64,000 bases of DNA, taken from Heptranchias perlo (lineage: Eukaryota). This document shows positions 3,136 to 62,312 of the stretch, piece after piece. Numbering within the stretch: the first letter of the stretch is position 1; each line of letters starts with the position of its first letter. The stretch lies in contig NW_027139359.1 in assembly GCF_035084215.1 (NCBI RefSeq), positions 124,001 to 188,000 on the forward strand. Direction: 5' to 3'. Made by a program: the position numbers and the translations under genes. The notes beneath the pieces were generated by a model. It saw only the letters and a list, made by a program, of their open reading frames with translations. It was not told where the DNA came from and did no database searches.

Positions 3136-4117
3136 ATAGCTCTCCCCCGTGATAATTAGAACCTCTGGGGTAGATTTAAACTCTCATCACTGGGCGGGAA
3201 ACTGGCAGGAACCGATTGTCTGTATCTTGAATAGAAAAATCACTACAGATTTCACCTAGATAACGTCCTTGAAACTTATCCTCCAACTTTTCCTCAAATA
3301 GTTTTTAAAAATGTGCAGACTCTCCTGAGAGCTAATGGAAGACAAAGAAAAATATCACTACTGAGTGATGCCTCCTAGGAAAGTAATTAAAACGTGTTTG
3401 CTCACAGTGTATAATTTGAATTGAACTAAGACCGTCACAACCCTGGGCAAAAATCCTAAGTACAAGCCAACGTTTCTGGGAGAGATTGTTTTAAATAAAA
3501 ACAATACAAAATGAATAAATGGAATCATGTAATTGTTCAATATGCTACTTTCGACATTATAATTTTGTTGAAATCTTTATTTGGGACATTAGAAAATTCA
3601 GATGTTCTAAAGTCATTTTCAGCAATGTGTCAGGTAAAAGAGATTTAAACGGCGATGTACGGACTGATGTAACAAGCAGGGCATTTGCGGTGAATCACCC
3701 GATATTCAATTACAGTAACGATCCGAAATTCAACTCCGTTGCCTTCAATCGAACTGAATATAATTTTGTCGCTGCAGCCCAAGAAACGATGTTATCCTAT
3801 AGTGAATTGGCAGCTCGTTTTACAATGCACTTGATGTTCTTTTTGGTTGAAGTACACAGAAAAGGAAATCGGACTCAGTGTGAAACGAGCTACTGATTCG
3901 ATATGTGCTCGTTTCACGCTGCTGGGTAAATTAATTTCACCCTCATTAATTCTGAACTCAGGACTTAAAATTGAGATTGATTTCACAGAGTGAATTTTTG
4001 GAAGCCCATCAAAAGTCTAATGCAATATGGACATTTTAAAAATCGGATATTCCATTGAAAAAGTCTACTTTGGGGCAAGCGAATGGTGCAGATGACATAT
4101 AATCCAAGTTTAGTACT

Positions 4118-8639: not shown

Positions 8640-9937
8640 AGTATTCTATCAACACATAAGTAACTAAGCTAAGCGAATCAAAAGATAAACTCTAAGGTAA
8701 TGACTGTGAAATGGCAGAAATATTGAACAGTTGCTTTGCCTCAAGGAGTCGAACACGGTGGACATGACGTTAGTAGAAGATATCAAAAAGGATATTAAGA
8801 CTTGTACGATGGATAAGAAGGAGATAGTTGATAAACAAGACCAACGAAGTTTCGATAAAACTGGTCCAGATGGGTTGCATCCGTGCATATTCAAAGAAGC
8901 TACGGGAGAGATGGAAAAGTCAGTATTACATATGTATAAAAATTCAGTAGAACATGGAATAGTGCCAGAGGACTGGCGGACAACTTATTTGACTCCTATA
9001 TTTAAAAATTCGACCGGATAAATCAAGGCTCGTGTAAATCAGTTACTTAACGATGGTCCTTTAGAATCTTTACTCCAAGATGTAATCGAAAAACAGCTAG
9101 AAACCGAAGATATGGCAAATAACAGTAAGTACGGATATCAAAAGGGAAGGTCATGCTTGACCAAACTTATTCAATTTTTGAAGATGAAACAGAAAGAACA
9201 AACAATGGTAATGCAGAGGAAATAATATCCATGAACTTTCATAAGGCCCGCGATAAGGTACCACATAGTATACTCATGATTAAAGTCAGAGAATATGGGG
9301 TCAAGGGACAAGTAGAAGAATGTAGTAAACTGGCTATAAAACAAAAAGCATAGAGTGGGAGTTAATGGGAGTTACTCAGACTGGCAGATGGTGGGAAGTG
9401 GTGTTCCACAGTGATCGGCGCTGGGACCTCTGTTGTTCACCATTTACATAAACGATCTGTACTCGGAATCGGAAGTACAATATGAAAATTTGCGGATGAC
9501 ACCAAATTGTGGGCATAGCTAATACTGAGAAGACTGCGTCAAAATAGACGAAAAAATTAACAAACTTGTCGAATTTGTTTTTAAATAGCGAATGAATTTC
9601 AATATCTATACACCTTGGAAAACACGAGTCTAAAAGGAATCTCGGGGTCAAATTCACAATCATAAAAAGTAGTAACGTAAGTTGACAAAGTCATAAAAGA
9701 TGCAGCAAAGCAGTGTGGTTCCTTTCTAGAGCAATAGAATTCATAAGCCAAAAAATGTTAAACGTGTACAGAGCCTTGGATAGACCGCACTTAGAGTACT
9801 GCACACAGTTCTGTTCTCCGTATTATAAAAATGGTATAGATGCCTTGGAGCAGGTGCAGAAAATATTTAGAAGCATGATACCAGAATTGAGAGGGTACAA
9901 CTATCAGGAAAGACTGAACACTCTGTTCTTTTCTCTA
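8640..9937 (+). mobile_element. Degraded CR1 ORF2 fragment (same subfamily as 47760-49470)
   Basis: GPDGLHPCIFKE, GIVPEDWR, DKVPH, FADDTK, RPHLEYCTQF. Confidence 0.85.
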
Positions 9938-11500: not shown

Positions 11501-12753
11501 AAAAAAACAAGACCACGAACTGGAGTATCTATCCCTCATACATTTCAATCTTTCACCTGATGATGGTAAGCACCAGTTGAAAAGAATGCATTGGAACTAA
11601 TGCTATGTTACACACATTGTCTCCAGCTCCATTGAACAGAGTAACCGTTCGTCCAACAGCGCCTCGTCTCTCTCGTCCAAGTTCCCAGTACGGGGCTTTA
11701 TATGAACTGAGCTTACTGTCCAGTCAATGATCATTCAGGGCAGCATATACATTCCAACAGTTCTTTGTAAATGATTGCAGTACAATCCCGTTCTCCCTGC
11801 TTTCAGCACGAAAGCTATGAGTAAGAACAGCTGACTTTGATGCATGGGCAACATGGACAGCAATAATCCATCCAAATGCTCGACTGCAACATTTTACTTT
11901 CCTCCTTTAACCCTCGCAATTTAACTGAAACTCTCAGTGTCCATCCACAAGCGGAAAAAAGGCGCTAGAATTCGTATTAGGCAGTAGCGCAAAACTGGTG
12001 GTAGCGAATCGGCAGCCTGTTTAACATTGTTATATTCAGATCCTGGATATTTCGCCTGTGGGAGGGGCGCCTGTTAATTTCGCCCGCGCGTTGCCTCAAA
12101 ATTCCATATGTTAATTTTAATGGAGAGAAAATCAGGAAGAAAATCAGGCCAATTTTTCGCCAGACGTTCCCATCAGACAGCTCTTACTCCCCAATTCTGA
12201 TGGATATATTTTGGTTAAATAAAGCTTCCCTCTCAAACGCCCCTTAATACCCTCAGTTCTAAGTTTACATTGTGCCGTTCTCAGGGAGGAAACAATAAGT
12301 CGGACCCTGTTTCTTCCATGTCCACGCGGGTCTTGGCGCATTCGCCAAAACCCAACACGATCATGGATGATGTGTGGGGCTTCCCGCTGCGGACAAATGT
12401 CCGGACCCTTTCCGTGTGGACATGATGAAAATTATCTCCATGTTGCCTCATGATGCTGAAACTCTTTGGAGCATATTGGAAGGAGAAGCAAAGAGAAGTA
12501 CCGAGATAAAAGGAAGTTAGTGCTAATCCAGCATCAATAGGCACAGCCGTTGCAACAAATTCTTCAATACATCATTGATAATGTTTGACATGTTTTGCTT
12601 GTGAGACGTGGTCCTGAAAGGATCTACACCAATACTACACAAATAGTCTTACTAAGATATTATATTTTCTCAATAAATCAAAGTAAAATTCTCGACTTTA
12701 ATATTCTAGCTCTGCTGTTCTAGCCTGTTAATGTAAGATAGTGTTCTGCTCGC

Positions 12754-12863
12754 TAATGACTAGTGTAAAAGCAGCTAACTAATCTGTTTGTTCAACGACT
12801 GTGACTAATGTCAGTAATTGGATGACCCAATTGTCCCCCATGAGATCTCACTCAGATATAAAA
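12754..12863 (+). promoter_or_regulatory. Proximal promoter of GPCR gene 1: homeodomain cores, Olf1/EBF-like site, TATA box
   Basis: TAATGA 12754, TAATTG 12815, CAATTG 12828, CCCCATGAGA 12836-12845, TATAAAA 12857-12863 (78 nt before ATG); collinear with the gene 3 promoter. Confidence 0.7.
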
Positions 12864-12934
12864 CACTGGTTGCTGTTTATCAATTTCATCTATTTGTCAA
12901 TCAGACCCACCAGCAAGATCACCTCTCCGAGAAA

Positions 12935-13004
12935 ATGGGATGGCCAGTAACTGTGCAGATCGAAGCAATTTGCTACCCGATTCTTGCGTTGATTGGTGTT
13001 CCTG
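12935..13004 (+). CDS. GPR139/GPR142-related class A GPCR gene 1, coding exon 1 (N-terminus and start of TM1)
   Basis: MGWPVTVQIEAICYPILALIGVP-G, 70 nt, donor G|gtaagc (phase 1) joins in frame to 15903 to give the TM1 motif GVPAN; paralogous exon at 38392-38461. Confidence 0.88.
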
Positions 13005-13589
13005 GTAAGCCATTGTAATCGGTTATTTCCCCTTACGAATACTTATGCATTATTGCTGTTTTTGCCTAACAACAATATATATTCCTTTTCTGATGTGTTT
13101 GATGCTGTCGGTAATTACTGTTATCATTTGAATGAAATACATGCTTCCAGTTTTCAGCATTTTCTTAAAATAAAGAGCTTATAGAAAATAAACTTTCCTG
13201 TGAAAGTTTTAAAATGAGCGATTTTAGCGATTTTTCTTCTCCTTTATTAATGGTTCTTCAGATATTGTTGGTTTTATAGTTTCTGCGCTCCTGCCCTACG
13301 CTGGACAAAGAGGACAATTCTGCACCAATAGCCCATGACTGTTGTGCCCAATTTCTTTCACACCACATTTGAGGTAAAGTGGAGAGTGGATTGTCTGCCA
13401 GTTAACGAACACATCCAATTTTCATTCCAATTGAACGCAATGGGCTGAAAATCGGATGTTCTGTAATAAGTGGTTGAACTGCTGGGTCACTTTACAGATC
13501 AAAGTGACAACCTACACCAGGGGGAATTTTAACCTAACTTTCCTGGCCAGAAACCTTTGTAATCGGTTCGGGCGGCCGTATTGCTTCTT

Positions 13590-14046
13590 GTAGGTTAATT
13601 GTAAACTTTGGGTGATGGTATAAAATGAGCGCTATCACATTAGCCGTCCAATATAAACCCTGCCTGATTTTCTGTTCCATTGATGGAATTGGAAGGACAA
13701 ATCGGACGAGAGGTATAATGGAGAGTGAATTTGATGTCACCCATTCCACACCATCGCCAAAAGTTAAAATTCCCCCCAATGGATGGGAATGTTGGGCGAG
13801 ATGTATAATTGATGGTGAATTAGACATCGCCCGTTGCACAACATTCTCTAAAGTTAAAATTACCACTCATTGATGGGAAAATTGGGCGAAATGTGTAATG
13901 GGTGGTTAATTCAATAACACCCGTTTTACACCATCGTCCAAAGTTAAATTGAACCCCAATGGATAGGAACATTGGAGGAGATGTGTAATGGATGGTGAAT
14001 TCAATATCACCCACTTCACAGCATTTCCCAATGTTAAAAATCCCCC
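13590..14046. repeat. MITE whose right arm is tandemly amplified (4 x 90 bp)
   Basis: aagttaaaat-type motif at 13761, 13851, 13941 and 14031; left arm aactttgggtgatggt pairs with accatcgccaaaagtt. Confidence 0.8.
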
Positions 14047-15902: not shown

Positions 15903-16807
15903 CTAATTTAATGACGATTGTGATTCTCTCCAGGGGAAAGTGCGGTCTCTCCAAATGCATCACTCGCTATCTGGTTGCCATGGCAACGGCCGATCTACTG
16001 GTCATAATATTTGATGTGATACTGTATGCGATCAACGATATTTATTTCCCATATTCATTCCTGAACTACACTTGTGTCTGCAGAATCAATCTCCCTCTGA
16101 TTTATTTTGCCATTGATTGCTCAGTGTGGTTAACAGTGACTTTCACCTTGGATCGCTTTGTAGCCATTTGTTGCCGGAATTTGAGAACTAAATATTGTAC
16201 CGAAAAAACCGCCGCTCTGGTTATAGTGACAGTTTGTGGACTGAGCTTTTTAGAAAATCTTCCAATTTATTTTATATTTGAACCCAGTGAAATAATTGAC
16301 AACACCTCGTGGTTCTGTAATGTTCAGTCAAACTTTTATACCTCTCCCGCCTGGATAGCCTACCTCTGGTTAGACAGTATTTTAACCCCATTTGCTCCAT
16401 TCGTTTTGATTTTCCTCCTCAATGCTTTGACCATCAGGCATATTTTAGCAGCTAATATTATCCGTAGGGGACTGCAAGGTAACAATGGTGAGAATCAAAA
16501 TGATCCAGAGATGAGGAATCGAAGAAAATCGATCATCTTACTACTCGCCATTTCTGGCAATTTTGTACTGTTGTGGATGCTAACTCTGATGTATTACATG
16601 TGTGTACAAATTGCAGACTCGCAGTTTTTGCAGACAGATTACACCGACTCTTTCACTAGCATGGAAAAAGCAGGTTATCTGCTGCAGCGGTTCAGTTCCT
16701 GCAGTAACACAATTATTTATGCAGTGGCTCAAACTAAATTCAGAGAGGAATTAATGAATACGGTTAAAAGTCCATTTACTTTAATTATTAAGTTAATGAA
16801 ACACTGA
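15903..16807 (+). CDS. GPR139/GPR142-related class A GPCR gene 1, exon 2 (TM1 to C-terminus); intact, 324 aa with exon 1
   Basis: Acceptor ttgttttgcag| then (G)CT AAT TTA ATG; seven hydrophobic segments; ATADLL (D2.50), C3.25, DRF, TPFAPF, FVLLWM, NTIIY, helix 8 KFREEL; no stops. Confidence 0.93.
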
Positions 16808-19623: not shown

Positions 19624-20538
19624 CTAATGTAATGACAATTGTGATTCTCTCCAGAGGAAAGTGCGGCCTCTCCAAATGCATAACTCGTTACCTGGTTGCC
19701 ATGGCAGCGGCGGATCTACTGTTCATCAGAGTTAATGTAATACTGTGTGAGATTAATAATAATTATTTTCCAAATTCATTTCTGAACTACACTCCTGTCT
19801 GCAGTTTGATTCTTACCCTGTCTTTTGCTGCCATTGATTGTTCCGTCTGGTTAACAGTCTCTTTCACCTTTGATCGATTTGTGGCCATTTGTTGCCGGAA
19901 GCTGAGACTCAAATATTGCACCGAAAAAACCGCGGCTGTCGTTATAGCAACGGTGTGTGGGCTGAGCTTCGTACAAAACATTCCGCTGTATTTTATATTT
20001 GAACCGCAGAAATTAATTATCAATGAAGATTGGCTCTGTATTGTAAAATTAAGCGTCTATACCTCACCCGTGTGGATAGCAATCTCCTGGTTTGACATTG
20101 TTTTAACCCCATTCGCTCCATTTGTTTGGATTTTGTTATTCAATGCTCTGACCATCAGGCAGATTCTGGTGACGAGTAGAGTTAGGAAGGAACTCAGGTG
20201 CAATAACAGTCGTGAGAATCACACAGATCCAGAGATGGAGACCCGAAGAAAATCCATCATTTTACTGCTCAGCATCTCTTGCAGCTTTATATTGTTATGG
20301 GTCATAACTTTAGCAGATTTTATCTGTGTACAAATTGTAGACTTTCAATTTATATTCACAGATTACAGTGACTCTCTCACCATCATGGAGGAAACTGGGG
20401 TATATGATTCAGAGTTTGAATTGTTGCACCAACACAATTATTTATGCAGTAGGGCAGAATAAATTCAGAGGCGAGCTGAAGGATGTGATTAAGTATCCCT
20501 TCGATCGAATTATTAAGTTTGTGAAATTATTGAAATAA
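19624..20538 (+). pseudogene. GPR139-related GPCR copy 2, main exon, with a +1 frameshift before TM7 (or a homopolymer assembly error)
   Basis: Acceptor tttcttgcag| CT AAT GTA ATG; open through TM6; extra G in GGGG 20397-20400; the shifted frame gives GYMIQSLNCCTNTIIYAVGQNKFRGELKDVIKYPF...TAA at 20538. Confidence 0.88.
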
Positions 20539-25807: not shown

Positions 25808-26712
25808 CTATTTAATTAATTTAATGATTAGATCCAAAGGATACTTAATTTCATGCTTTAACTCCGTTCTGAATTTTGTCTGGGCCACTGCATAAATAAA
25901 TGTATTTGTACAGGGACTGAGAAGCTGCAGCATATACCCGGTCTGTTCCATGATGATGAGAGGGTGACTGTAGTCATTGTAGAAATGCTGAGCATCTGTA
26001 ACTTTTACACAAATGAAATATACAGTGGCTATCATCCATAGCAGTAGAAAACTGGCCGATATGGCAACCAGTAAAATAATGGATTTTCTTCTGTTCTTTA
26101 CCTCTGGGTCATTTTGATTCTCACCACTGTTGCTACCTCGAAGTGTCTTGCGGATTTTACTGACCACTAAAATGTGTCTGATGGTCAGAGCATTGAACAG
26201 AAAAATCAGGAAGAATGGAGCGAATGGTGTTAAAATGCTGTCCATCCAAGAATATGCTACCCACGCACGTACGGAATAGAAACTTGACTTTAAAGAGCAG
26301 TACCACGATACATCGTTAACTATTTTCCCAGGTTCAAAAACAAAATAGATCGGGGTGTTCTCCAAAACGCTCAGCACACACACTGCTGCTATGACGACAA
26401 TCGCAGTTTTTTCCGTGCAATATCTGAGTCTCAGCTTCTGGCAACAAATGGCCACAAATCGATCAAAGGTGAAAGAGACCGTTAACCAGACGGAACAATC
26501 AATAGCAGCAAAACCCAGGATGTGTTTCAGGCTACAAATAAGAGTGTAGTTCGGGAATGAATTTGGGAAATACATGTCATTAATCTCATACAGTATTACA
26601 TTAAATATCAGGACCAACAGATCTGCTACTGCCATGGCCACCAGGTAACGGGTGATGCATTTGGAGAGACCACACGTTCCACGGGAGAGAATCACAATCG
26701 TGAATAAGTTGG
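25808..26712 (-). CDS. GPR139-related GPCR gene 3, exon 2; intact, 324 aa with exon 1 at 38392-38461
   Basis: Acceptor tttttcatgcag| CC AAC TTA TTC ACG; 905 nt like gene 1 exon 2; AVADLL, DRF, TPFAPF, FLLLWM, NTFIY, KFRTEL; no stops. Confidence 0.93.
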
Positions 26713-37160: not shown

Positions 37161-38391
37161 TACATCTGATACAAGGGTTGCTTTTTCAAGTGAAAATGTT
37201 CCTTGCAGGAATTTTATTCAATTACAAGTTATGCAGCTAAATGCAATCTACCTTTGTAAATTTCCTGTAAATAGAAGGTTCCTTGAGCATCTGGACAGCT
37301 GTCCTCCTAACTATGGTGTCGGATCTGGTTTCCCTCATGAAAGTCTTGTTGCATCTTTTCGAAGAAAGGTGCCATGTGAACGGAAAATCGCAACCATTCC
37401 ACATGGAACATTATATCCAGGTATTTCTTTGCGAATTATTCTGTAAATACTGTGCTCTGTGTACTTACAAGTACTGGTCCTAGAACCCAAACAAAAAGGA
37501 ATGTTCCCTTTCAGTCTCAGCAGCAATTCTGTGCAATAGATGCCCGGCTAAATATCCAAACCCTGCAGTGAGCGTGTTTCTCTCCCCGTGTCCAATTTGA
37601 ACAGGGAGTGCTTCATTGTTATTTCAGTCAGCGGGCCTGGAAGTATCCTGCAATTTCTCCACGAACTTTTCAATGGTCCCACCACCACTTCATAAGACCA
37701 CAAAATTAACCTTATAGACAGAGAAATATAACTCACTTATACATGCCACAACATTCGACATTTAATTACTTATAAGAACCTATAACTACGAAAAACGCAG
37801 GAAAAGAGAGAGTCCTACCCCTTGTACCAGAGCCGTATCAGTACTGTTCATTGACAGTTCACACATATATATCAGGACCATTTTGCTCATGGAAGTATAA
37901 TTATTCACACTGAGAGTAGTATGAATTACATTTTTTTAAATATTGTTTTTCTGCTCCCCTGAATGGAATAATGAAAATCATAAACTCATAAATGAATATT
38001 TAATATGTGATGGGTACACTTCGTCTGGATAGATCTAAATTGTTCATTGGGCATTTTTTAACGTTAACATTTACCAATTTATTTTAAATAGCTCAGCTAT
38101 TAAATAAAAATATTGTTCGGAATTTCAAGGATCTTCTCCTGAATAAAGGAGAATAAAATCAGTAAAATTGCTGATTTTCAAGTTTAAGAGAAAATTGCAC
38201 TTTCTCTCAGCTAAGTCCATTGAGAATGTTTTGGAAACTGAAGGGAGTGTTTTCATTGAGCTGATTCAATCAGTAACAAAATATCAAACATATCACAACA
38301 TACAGATGTTATTATTAGGCAGGCAGAAAGGGCTGCAATTCAGTTAACGACTGACATTGCTAAAAAAAAATAATGGTGCATAGTGACTTAC

Positions 38392-38461
38392 CAGGAACAC
38401 CAACAACTGCAAGAATAGGATAGTAAATTTCTTCTATCTGAGCAATTATTGGCCGCCCCAT
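38392..38461 (-). CDS. GPCR gene 3, coding exon 1
   Basis: Reverse complement encodes MGRPIIAQIEEIYYPILAVVGVP-G, 70 nt, donor G|gtaagt, phase 1; paralogue of 12935-13004; implies an 11.7-kb intron. Confidence 0.88.
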
Positions 38462-38532
38462 TCGTCCGATAGGTGATGTTATCTGTTGGTTTGAATGACA
38501 GGCAGATGAGTTGGCTTCAAAGCTACCGTTGA

Positions 38533-38568
38533 TTTATACTTGTGAAATGTCCCAAGTGAGGCAATTAG
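38533..38568 (-). promoter_or_regulatory. Proximal promoter of GPCR gene 3: homeodomain site, Olf1/EBF-like site, TATA box
   Basis: Minus strand: TAATTG (38567-38562), 2 nt, TCACTTGGGA (38559-38550), TATAAA (38538-38533, 77 nt before ATG). Confidence 0.7.
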
Positions 38569-39426
38569 GTTAGACCACCTTTTACATTATTCACAGACAT
38601 ATGAACAAACAGACTCGCGGCTGTTTCTATTTCTACTTTGATCAGGGAATGAAACATCGTATCGACATTTCCCCATGGCATTAATTTCGAAACTAAATAC
38701 AAGAATAAGAGTTTGATTCTGTTGAGAATAACATGTTTTGAAACCAATAATTTTGTAGCCATGAGGCAGATCACTCGAGGACGGGACCTTTCATAGAGTT
38801 TCTCAAGTCACCAAATTACACCTTTGAAGAATCAAGGGCACTAACTTACATGAGATTAACACGATCTAGATTTTAGATACATATAGAATATATGTTGCTT
38901 TTTGTTTATTTTAAATGAACCATCCTGCTCAGCTTACGTATCAGGAATGTCTCAAGATGCATGAGATCAAAGTACCTCCATAGATACATTCAGGGAGCAA
39001 TACTAGTGTCTTGGGCAGTGCTTGAGGTAAGGCTTTTTGCCCACATGCCGACTCCCTGGCAGCCTATTTATTTTACTCAGGCCAGCTCACAGAACAAATT
39101 GTGCATGGCAGTAAGAAACCATTGAACTGGGGTGAAGAAATTGTATGTAATCAAAAAGGATGCTGCAACTTAAAGGAAAGTAGATGCATCTACGAAGACA
39201 TAAATTGGAAAATCCTTGTTAAAGGCTACATGGGGAAAAATGGTGACTACCAACACAATGTAAATATCGACTATGCGATAGATTGAAAAATGAAGGAGCG
39301 CGACAGAAGCTTGCTGGCTAGTGAGATGAAAGAATTGCTGCACTTAGATGGGTGAGAAGAGGTCTCCCTATTCCCAGGACAACAGTAAAATTTCCAGGGA
39401 GCAGTTCGTGGTCAGGTTGACAAAGT

Positions 39427-51522: not shown

Positions 51523-52390
51523 TTAGTATTTAATTAATTTTACAATTAGAGACAGGAGTACTGAATCATACTCGTCAGTTCCTCTCTGAATTTTAATCAG
51601 AGCCATTGTACAGATCATCGTGATTGTGCAGGATCTGAAAAGCTGATGAATATATCCGGTTTGTTCCATGATGGTAAAAGGGTCAATGTAATTTTTGTGG
51701 AAAATGGGAGTATCTATAATGTGTATATATATGTAATGTATAAACATTACCATCTACAACAGTATGAAAGTACCGGATATGGCCAGCGGTAGCGTTATGA
51801 ATTTCTCAGCCTCTGCGTCCTTATGATTGTCGCCATTGTTGATACCCCGCAGTCCCCTTGTGATTCTGCTGGTCAGGAGTATGTGCCTGATGGTCACAAC
51901 GTTGAACAGCAAAATTAAAACAAATGGAGCAAATGAGGTTAAAATACTTCCTAACCACAAAAAAGCGACCCACCCCTGTGTGGTGTCGAAGCTTGAAGTT
52001 ATGTAGTAGGGCCACGGCACCTTGACAATTAATTCCTGAGGTGCTTATATAAAATATTCCAGAATAATTTCTGCAAAACTCAGTCCACACGCGATTCCTA
52101 TAACCAAAGCCGCAGTATTTACATTACAACATTTTGTTGTCAATTTCTGGCAACAAATGGCCACAAAACGATTAAATGTGAAAGAATAGTTAACCAGACT
52201 GCAAGAGCAAGAGGAAGAATGAGACTGCAGACAGGAGTGTAGTTCGGGAATGAATTGGGAAAATAGGCATCGTTAATCTCATACTGGATTACATTAAACA
52301 TCCGATACCGTGGCCAACAGGTAACGGGTGATGCAGTTAGAGAGGCTGTCCTTTCCACAACAAAGAATGCAATTGTCAAAAAAAAAATAG
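51523..52390 (-). pseudogene. GPR139-related GPCR copy 4, decayed main exon
   Basis: Acceptor ttttttgcag|; fragments CITRYL, YFPNSFPNYTPVCSLIL, SILTSFAPFVLILLFN, DPFTIMEQTGY in different frames; several frameshifts and deletions. Confidence 0.9.
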
Positions 52391-53957: not shown

Positions 53958-54920
53958 TCCTTAAAGTGGCGCTTACATTTTGATTTTGTCACCGCTCGTA
54001 ATCCAGTGGAACCAGCTACTCGACTTGAGGACCCATCGGAGATAATTACTTGGACTGGGGCAGACCAAACAGGTGTGGACACATTCAGCTGGGATCTGCC
54101 CATAATGCTGTTTCCAACCAATCCTATGCTTGCATCTTATGTGTCACAGTGTTCACCTTCTAATTCCATCAGTATTCGAACTTTATTATTTTCTCTTCAG
54201 CTGAGGAGTGGTACTTTGGAAAGTTTACAACCACTGGATTTAAAATGTTTGGATTTTAATAACCATCAATGTTACAACAGTAACAAATGGAAGGGCAAGG
54301 AATGAAACCGCCATAGATTTTCCAACTACATCAGTTCTTGCACTGCTAATCAGGGGTTACTAAATATATCACAATGTGCGACACCAGAACATTGCTGTGC
54401 AGAAGTGAGCAGTAATGGCTTATGGAAAGAAATGTGAAGAGAGGGATTTGTGGTGACCACATTTTCTCCAATGAATTACATTGAAAGGGCTCGGAGGGAA
54501 AACATCCAACTTCCCCATTTTCTTATATATGTTTGAAAACTGTCGATCCAAAAATTGCTTAAATTTGAAACTGACTGATCCGAAGATTCTGTCTTCAGTG
54601 GAAGTACTTTAAACACACAAAGTTGTGTTTATGGCTCTTGATCTATGATGGTTGTGAAGTATGAGCTTACAATTAAATCGTTGAAATGCACTTTTTATTT
54701 TGCAGTGTTTTTTAATGTAGATAGTCTGAAGCCCACGATTAGGGAGTACTGCAAATTCACATACTTCTGTGCTCATTGAAGTTCCTATGTGTGTAACTTT
54801 TAACACATGCTGCACATTCACAGATAGTTTGCTGCTCTTGAGAATTCTACATTTTGTACTAAAGGTACATTTTATTCATTGTATAATAAAACATCAATAA
54901 ATCCTGTTAATCTAAAAAAA
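53958..54920 (+). pseudogene. RGP1: 5'-truncated retrocopy of the RGP1 (RAB6A GEF complex partner 1) mRNA 3' end: last ~73 codons + 3' UTR + poly(A) remnant
   Basis: SLKWRLHFDFVTARNPVEP...TWTGADQTGVDTFSWDLPIMLFPTNPMLASY...SNSISI matches the vertebrate RGP1 C-terminus as I recall it; CGA at the expected stop (54177-54179); AATAAA at 54885 and 54896; A7 at 54914-54920. Confidence 0.88.
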
Positions 54921-61407: not shown

Positions 61408-62312
61408 TCAATGTTTCATTAAGTTAATAATTAAAGTGAAGGGACTTTTAACCGTATTCACTAACTCCTCTCTGAACTTGGTCTGAACCACTGCATAGAT
61501 AATGGTGTTGGTACACGAACTGAACCGCTGCAGCAGGTATCCTGTTTGTTACATGATAGTGAAAGGGTCGGTGTAATCTGTCTGCAAAAACTGCGAGTCT
61601 GCAATTTGTACACACATGTAATACATCAGAGTTAGCATCCACAACAGTACAAAATTGCCAGATATGGCGAGTAGAAAGATGATGGATTTTCTTCGATTCC
61701 TCATCTCTGGATCATTTTGATTCTCACCATTGTTGCCTTGTAATCCCTTTCGGATAATATTAGCTGCTAAAATATGCCTGATAGTCAAAGCATTGAGGAG
61801 CAAAATCAAAACGAATGGAGCAAATGGGGTTAAAATACTGTCTAACCAGAGATAGGCTATCCCGGCGGGAGAGGTATAAAAGCTTGACTGAGCTTTACAG
61901 AACCACCAGGTGCTGTCAATTACTTCCAGGGGTTCATACGTAAACCACATCGGAACATTTTCTAAAAAGCTCAGTCCACAAACTGTCACTATAACCGTAG
62001 CGGCGGTTTTATCTGTACAATATTTAGTTCTCAAATTCCGGCAACAAATGGCTACAAAACGATCAAAGGCAAAAGTCACGGTTAACCAGACGGAGCAATC
62101 AATGGCAAAATAAATCAGAGGGAGATTGATTCTGCAGACAGAAGTGTAGTTCAGGAATGAATATGGGAAATAAATATCTTTGATCCCATACAAGATTACA
62201 TCAAATATCATGACAAGCAGATCCGCTATTGCCATGGCAACCAGATAGCGAGTGATGCATTTGGAGAGACCGCACGTTCCCCGGGAAAGAATCACAATCG
62301 TCATTAAATTAG
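61408..62312 (-). pseudogene. GPR139-related GPCR copy 5 main exon (closest paralogue of gene 1) with one in-frame TAA before TM7; exon 1 probably beyond the window
   Basis: Acceptor ttttgtag| CT AAT TTA ATG; 905 nt like gene 1; TAA at 61551-61549 where paralogues encode Glu; the frame continues QTGYLLQRFSSCTNTIIYAV...LMKH-TGA. Confidence 0.9.

Follow-up and report, generated by a model that had tools for sequence, protein, structure and literature searches.

A probable compact promoter of fixed order, with EBF-like, homeodomain-like and TATA elements, at two GPR139-like receptor genes of the shark Heptranchias perlo

Two intact receptor genes of Heptranchias perlo, gene 1 and gene 3, carry in front of their coding sequence the same series of elements in a fixed order: block A, block B, a homeodomain-like (HD) hexamer, an Olf1/EBF-like (O/E) site, a TATA box, a CA at +31, a short untranslated region and a 70-nt coding exon (Table 1). 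This order has been kept in both genes despite their silent-site identity having fallen to 53%. We suggest, giving the proposal an even chance, that the arrangement represents a compact EBF/homeodomain/TATA sensory-neuron promoter, which a subfamily of GPR139-like receptors in elasmobranchs received from a single ancestral gene. As far as the DNA itself can indicate, the EBF site is probable, its homeodomain partner is less certain and the case for the TATA/initiator pair is good. The promoter motifs are of a known kind and carry modest weight at n = 2, and it is the receptor family behind them that is the interesting object.

The window, by which we mean the whole 64-kb stretch of shark DNA analysed, is rich in retro-element fragments. 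The exon of 0.9 kb that specifies the greater part of a class A GPCR is present in five copies and the short first coding exon in two; searches of the 64-kb window with BLAST and with an exon-1 profile built from 61 of 120 relatives detected no family promoters or first exons beyond those of gene 1 and gene 3. Both genes encode intact proteins of 324 aa, which are identical at 212/323 positions, and the introns, both GT-AG, measure 2898 nt in gene 1 and 11679 nt in gene 3. Three of the five exon-2 copies are broken: 19624-20526 (+) by a frameshift, 51526-52390 (-) by multiple breaks and 61411-62312 (-) by one in-frame stop. Neither of the first two is accompanied by its own exon 1 or promoter, and the copy at 19624-20526, which follows gene 1 in the same orientation at a distance of 2.8 kb, could once have been under the gene 1 promoter. 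The copy at 61411-62312 shows 91% identity to gene 1 exon 2, and its exon 1 would fall outside the window. Intron 1 of gene 1 contains a tandem repeat at 13699-14046 (90-nt period, 3.9 copies, 72% matches), and an Rfam search of 12400-13400 gave 0 matches.

Table 1. Features of genes 1 and 3 in the window. Negative numbers are positions relative to the ATG.
Gene	Feature	Sequence	Position	Strand	Remarks
1	TAAT hexamer	TAATGA	12754..12759	+	gene 1 only; without counterpart in gene 3 alignment
1	Block A	TCTGTTTGTTCA	12783..12794	+	12/12 identical with gene 3
1	Block B	CTGTGAnTAATGT	12799..12811	+	12/13 identical with gene 3; TAAT core kept in both
1	TAAT hexamer	TAATTG	12815..12820	+	-120; gene 1 only; without counterpart in gene 3 alignment
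1	Homeodomain-like hexamer	CAATTG	12828..12833	+	-107; one mismatch to TAATTG, without TAAT core
1	O/E-like site	CCCCATGAGA	12836..12845	+	-99; 6/8 informative EBF bases; pyrimidine/purine pattern 8/8
1	TATA box	TATAAAA	12857..12863	+	-78; 6/6 with gene 3
1	Predicted initiator	TCATCT	12886..12891	+	predicted +1 at 12888
1	Predicted 5′ UTR		12888..12934	+	about 47 nt
1	Coding exon 1		12935..13004	+	70 nt; ATG 12935; GT donor at 13005
1	Exon 2		15903..16807	+	spliced ORF 324 aa, 7tm_1
3	Block A		38602..38613	-	counterpart of gene 1 block A
3	Block B		38584..38596	-	counterpart of gene 1 block B
3	Homeodomain site	TAATTG	38562..38567	-	-106
3	O/E-like site	TCACTTGGGA	38550..38559	-	-98; 7/8 informative EBF bases
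3	TATA box	TATAAA	38533..38538	-	-77
3	Predicted initiator	TCATCT	38504..38509	-	predicted +1 at 38507
3	Coding exon 1		38392..38461	-	70 nt; ATG 38461
3	Exon 2		25808..26712	-	spliced ORF 324 aa, 7tm_1

Every motif that an earlier note on this DNA had placed at the two receptor promoters was recovered at its correct coordinates on re-scanning. The identical order of HD-like, O/E-like and TATA elements and the 2-nt spacer between HD and O/E hold in genes 1 and 3, and the 5′ UTRs, described as collinear, are identical at 32/48 positions. The HD and O/E sites lie 21–29 nt 5′ of the TATA box, and in both genes an O/E-like site is found within 300 nt upstream of the inferred start. The two O/E-like sites differ at 4/10 bases, and at each of the 8 informative EBF bases the consensus base is present in either the gene 1 or the gene 3 copy. 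The homeodomain side is less uniform than had been claimed: the gene 1 hexamer CAATTG, taken as a TAATNN site, contains no TAATNN on either strand, and the extra TAATTG and TAATGA of gene 1, though present, are absent from the gene 3 alignment. Homeodomain hexamers near the O/E site are TAATTG at -106 in gene 3 and at -120 in gene 1, together with the TAATGT of block B, which is common to both genes. Such hexamers are frequent, with 276 in 64 kb, and sites of the quality of the gene 3 O/E site number 14 in 64 kb. Two pairs of TAATTA with an O/E-like site, at 3143-3158 (-) and 54031-54048 (-), are isolated and far from any exon 1; they could be chance occurrences or candidate enhancers of the cluster.

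The core promoter is the firmest part of the assignment. Both genes have a CA whose A lies 31 nt after the first T of the TATA box, and ~30 nt is the usual distance from TATA to the start, which is why we place the starts at 12888 and 38507. TBP/TFIID would very probably use the TATA box and begin transcription at these positions. Alternatively, the stretch could be the 3′ end of an intron within the 5′ UTR, with the AG before TATAAA as acceptor, block B as branch point and the promoter farther upstream, but we regard this as highly improbable. An AG does adjoin TATAAA in both copies, the NCBI model P0009 splices in at exactly that AG of gene 1, and 5′-UTR exons exist in 37/39 mouse V1R genes (PMC3247230; here and below, statements from the literature refer to the accessible parts of the papers cited). 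However, T makes up 25–30% of the candidate acceptors compared with 55–60% of each of the five true acceptors of exon 2, the position of the AG shifts by one base from one gene to the other while TATAAA and the CA at +31 are fixed, and the upstream exon of P0009 is a retro-element fragment, so that the model is most likely an annotation artefact. That exon is 51/52 identical to 8710-9021 and related to an RVT_1 ORF. P0009, a Heptranchias perlo model with 99% identity to gene 1 exon 2, joins 8710-9021 to 12854-12934 (+) and makes promoter and UTR coding.

How far the promoters are conserved beyond simple descent was judged against two backgrounds, the gene 1/gene 3 identity at four-fold sites (42/79, 0.53) and that upstream of -180 (90/150, 0.60), with an aligner baseline of 0.49 identity on 200 unrelated windows. 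The promoter alignment runs from about -330 into intron 1, where homology continues at ~59% and thus shows how much sequence survives by descent. The region -152..-1 is identical at 100/152 positions (P 0.0009–0.08 depending on background). Within it, identity is 5/6 for HD, 6/10 for O/E, 6/6 for TATA and 22/35 from HD to TATA, and the TATA box is the sole part of the module nominally above background (P 0.02–0.05). The description of the module as conserved is thus not borne out at base level, with 22/35 and 6/10 against a background of 53–60%; when the motifs were compared with their surroundings, HD, O/E and the whole module gave P 0.14–0.63, in a comparison of low power with its n = 2 paralogues. 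The likeness of the promoter pair, again n = 2, is partly due to the common descent of the genes. On the intronic side the homology extends ~240 nt, over 13005-13250 (+) and 38142-38391 (-), and includes a well-kept pyrimidine-rich block near 13210-13250, a possible intronic element.

The most constrained promoter bases are instead those of blocks A and B, neither of which is an O/E site. Block A, linker and block B together (-152..-124) are identical at 26/29 positions, with a scan-corrected P of 0.003–0.035; block A alone is not significant (scan-corrected P 0.07–0.25). The two blocks form the best-conserved upstream element and the only upstream stretch above background after scan correction, and they were absent from the module of the earlier note. 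Block A occurs in 2 copies only in the 64-kb window and the two-block motif only at these two promoters, and the blocks offer a sharper genome-wide probe for family promoters than the HD, O/E and TATA motifs. Block A presumably resembles a forkhead/Sox site, and block B reads TGAnTAAT with a TAAT core, which we take to be of homeodomain type.

The strength of the blocks bears on an alternative that we consider unlikely but that deserves weighing, namely that the HD and O/E likeness is an incidental residue of ancestry, that blocks A and B set the tissue and that the genes act outside the nose, in gut, skin, taste or immune cells. It is the blocks, at 26/29, that exceed background while the O/E site, at 6/10, equals it; the HD and O/E pair was picked after looking, and the ~59% homology persists into intron 1 by descent. 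On the other hand, a pre-named pair this good is rare both in simulations and among possible motif pairs. OR enhancers are reported to contain Foxj2 sites (PMC5318403), and block A is therefore no argument against olfaction. In simulated descendants of a random ancestor, an EBF-like site this good arose in both copies in 312–724/40000 cases, and together with an adjacent HD-like site (gap 0–3) in 1–20/40000. In the real promoter pair, the motifs fitting both promoters at the same stringency were 4 of 256 palindromic 4-N2-4 motifs, EBF among them, 142 of 2048 hexamers and 41 of 524288 adjacent pairs; the thresholds of both analyses were taken from the observed sites, so all these figures flatter the result. 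The OMP probe in a published probe table displays this EBF palindrome. With one mismatch allowed, the pattern fitted to both sites has 2 matches in the window and 12/100 shuffles reach 2, so the signal fades quickly. Given cut-offs derived from the observed sites and a pair selected post hoc, the rarity of the HD/O/E combination amounts to moderate evidence, and chance is the less likely source of the O/E likeness at both promoters.

In the mechanism that we propose, an EBF-family dimer would bind 21 nt upstream of the TATA box with the help of a homeodomain protein on the adjoining site, and further assistance would come from factors of forkhead/Sox and homeodomain type bound to blocks A and B; we find this slightly more probable than its contrary. 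Lhx2 as the protein on the HD site is a guess. EBF and homeodomain factors are active in many neurons and other cells. Through this promoter the genes would be expressed in neurons of the olfactory or another chemosensory system, with the expanded family acting as a receptor repertoire for water-borne ligands, a proposal with close to an even chance. The olfactory part of this reading draws more on how the gene family behaves than on the motifs.

Known olfactory promoters provide a measure of the motifs. HD and O/E motifs are established in mouse OR promoters (PMC12547500), and O/E-like sites were present in 39/39 V1R promoters examined (PMC3247230), so microvillous-type receptor genes use O/E too; catshark olfactory neurons are microvillous and their known receptor repertoire is small (PMC10116579). 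A strong Lhx2/Ebf composite occurs in 35/63 Greek Islands and is enriched there relative to promoters (PMC5608512, PMC7804114), it has a 1-bp spacer (PMC11643329), and 3805 co-bound EBF/Lhx2 sites genome-wide entered the mouse analysis (PMC5608512). Among OR promoters with an Ebf motif, an Lhx2 motif lies within 3 bp in 11/521 (PMC5608512 source data). The premise that adjacent homeodomain and O/E sites mark olfactory receptor promoters and enhancers therefore stands for the occurrence of both motifs in promoters, but their adjacency is a trait of enhancers. As in the shark promoters, the composite of Greek Islands and the J-element consists of an HD hexamer followed directly by a degenerate EBF site of pyrimidine-NN-purine form. 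It differs from them in being an intergenic enhancer with a 1-nt spacer, compared with a 2-nt spacer in a promoter, and its TAAT core is present in TAATTG of gene 3 and not in CAATTG of gene 1. Read in the 1-nt register the shark sites match EBF at 4/8 and 3/8 bases, and in the 2-nt register at 6/8 and 7/8; one readable composite probe fits Y4N2R4 in both registers, and the difference in spacing rests on the parse of its authors. With a match in the 2-nt register only and a promoter position, the shark element falls outside the composite class and may work as an olfactory receptor promoter; it would then function like the proximal promoter of an OR or V1R gene, without being a Greek-Island composite.

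Mouse OR promoters (M71, MOR23) share with the shark promoters HD and O/E-like sites within ~100 nt of the start, AT-richness (GC 0.36–0.38) and association with clustered GPCR genes. They are, however, usually without TATA (PMC5318403), which the shark promoters have at a fixed distance, and HD and O/E abut in the shark promoters but in only the 11/521 mouse OR promoters mentioned above. The shark genes are also not ORs and, unlike mouse OR genes, have a coding first exon. Mouse V1R promoters resemble the shark ones in their O/E-like sites near the start and in homology within a subfamily, whereas the V1Rs themselves are a receptor family unrelated to the shark genes and have mostly non-coding first exons (PMC3247230).

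The receptor family is large. At E≤1e-10 we found 2194 related proteins among 3206 candidates, and the best 120 of these 2194 include 116 named elasmobranch proteins, mostly ‘probable GPR139’, with 36 from H. perlo, of which 16 are recorded on a contig of the same length as that of P0009; the protein of gene 3 is not among these best 120, nor is any with an OR, TAAR, V1R or V2R name. In Pfam, 7tm_1 was the sole domain above the cut-off, the best match of solved structure (PDB) is GPR139 (43 bits, E 3.2e-10), and in the ESM Atlas several clusters of chordate proteins bear this automatic name as well. Judged by sequence, genes 1 and 3 are not OR, TAAR, V1R or V2R genes. GPR139/GPR142 and the ‘orphan 139-like’ receptors (GPR210A/B) are class A 7tm_1 proteins like those of the shark, but the shark family stands apart by its 43 bits to GPR139, its massive expansion in elasmobranchs and a nearest group that consists of a separate gene of amphibians and a sturgeon. 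A quick tree of 64 rows, which left out three possible GPR139/GPR142 orthologues and contained no named GPR139/GPR142 sequence, groups gene 3 with whale shark, zebra shark and electric ray proteins with a support of 100. Since this clade holds a ray protein and two carpet-shark proteins, the split between genes 1 and 3 appears to predate that between sharks and rays. The nearest outside row in the tree is P0225, an amphibian gene. Its matches comprise 20/25 amphibian rows, one per species, with 1 sturgeon and 4 elasmobranch rows, and the amphibian/sturgeon gene has 32–33% identity to the shark proteins. The family has undergone a huge expansion in elasmobranchs, and amphibians appear to have a single copy; both the closer amphibian gene and the low score argue against one-to-one orthology with mammalian GPR139. 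P0225 and P0268-P0287 represent a conserved GPR139-like gene, for which Xenopus is a tractable model for ligand and expression.

In an entropy profile of 85 shark proteins, variability peaks, in our reading, in the outer halves of TM3 and TM6/ECL3. Variability of the outer halves is common to many GPCR families. Taken together, tandem expansion, gene death and pocket-side variability would fit a chemoreceptor repertoire. It is rather improbable that EBF and the homeodomain factor act here in non-olfactory neurons and that the genes encode neuromodulatory receptors like their distant relatives GPR139 and GPR142. Mammalian GPR139 is a brain receptor, and GPR139 is also the best solved-structure match. 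EBF and Lhx2, moreover, co-bind thousands of non-OR sites (PMC5608512). Yet dozens of tandem paralogues and frequent gene death would be unusual for receptors of one endogenous ligand, and the score to GPR139 is only 43 bits. A term search of the main text of the catshark habenula transcriptome paper (PMC11589584) found no ‘gpr’, which is a weak point against the neuromodulatory role.

The chemosensory reading leads to a broader proposal, to which we incline slightly less than to its opposite: elasmobranchs may possess a fifth olfactory receptor family, GPR139-like, with dozens to hundreds of tandem genes and a compact TATA promoter combining an ancient EBF/homeodomain code with a family-specific upstream block. 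Sharks have large noses and few known smell receptors, and OR, TAAR and V1R repertoires are tiny there and mostly unexpressed (PMC10116579). The missing shark repertoire has an obvious candidate in a large GPCR expansion whose promoter is of olfactory type. If true, this would revise the view of a small, V2R-only smell repertoire in sharks and would date the EBF/homeodomain code back to the base of the jawed vertebrates. In the open-access literature we found no description of the shark GPR139-like expansion or of its olfactory expression. The accessible parts of PMC6504862 and PMC5207463 treat GPR139-like orphan subtypes in fishes and mention no shark expansion, and those of PMC8455134, PMC12294341 and PMC13113109 hold nothing further on the family or its expression. 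The main text of a catshark sensory-organ paper (PMC11979771) contains no ‘gpr’, and its top-50 list for ‘brain & olfactory epithelium’ contains no GPCR, a weak negative because single receptor genes are rare transcripts. Shark genomes and olfactory RNA-seq that already exist would allow an inexpensive test of the olfactory idea.

Annotated relatives offer one further view of family promoters, through N-terminal extensions in which upstream DNA may have been translated. A search with the in-frame upstream translation of gene 1 returned only P0009, 1/8 candidates. Of the 36 extensions listed, the 16 long ones were read by back-translation: 6/16 are TATA-compatible and 1/16, P0215, is also O/E-compatible. 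The residues of the P0215 extension are compatible with a perfect O/E site that precedes TATAAA by 22 nt, a distance similar to the 21 nt of genes 1 and 3, as happened in 1/300 shuffles with a distance window chosen after seeing P0215. Collinearity with the UTRs of genes 1 and 3 is clear only for P0009 among 12 extensions tested and is marginal for P0215 (score 18.1 against a random maximum of 16.5). The residues of P0215 leave no space for an abutting HD site, and the protein is closest to another subfamily than that of genes 1 and 3. As a third promoter example it is a weak lead; if real, it would favour O/E and TATA as the family constant, with HD adjacency optional. The long N-terminal extensions of P0165, P0181, P0210, P0228, P0233, P0243, P0245, P0247, P0250 and P0252, all of one subfamily, carry repeated W-N-V-T-T-M-D-Q-like units, possibly a glycosylated repeat ectodomain.
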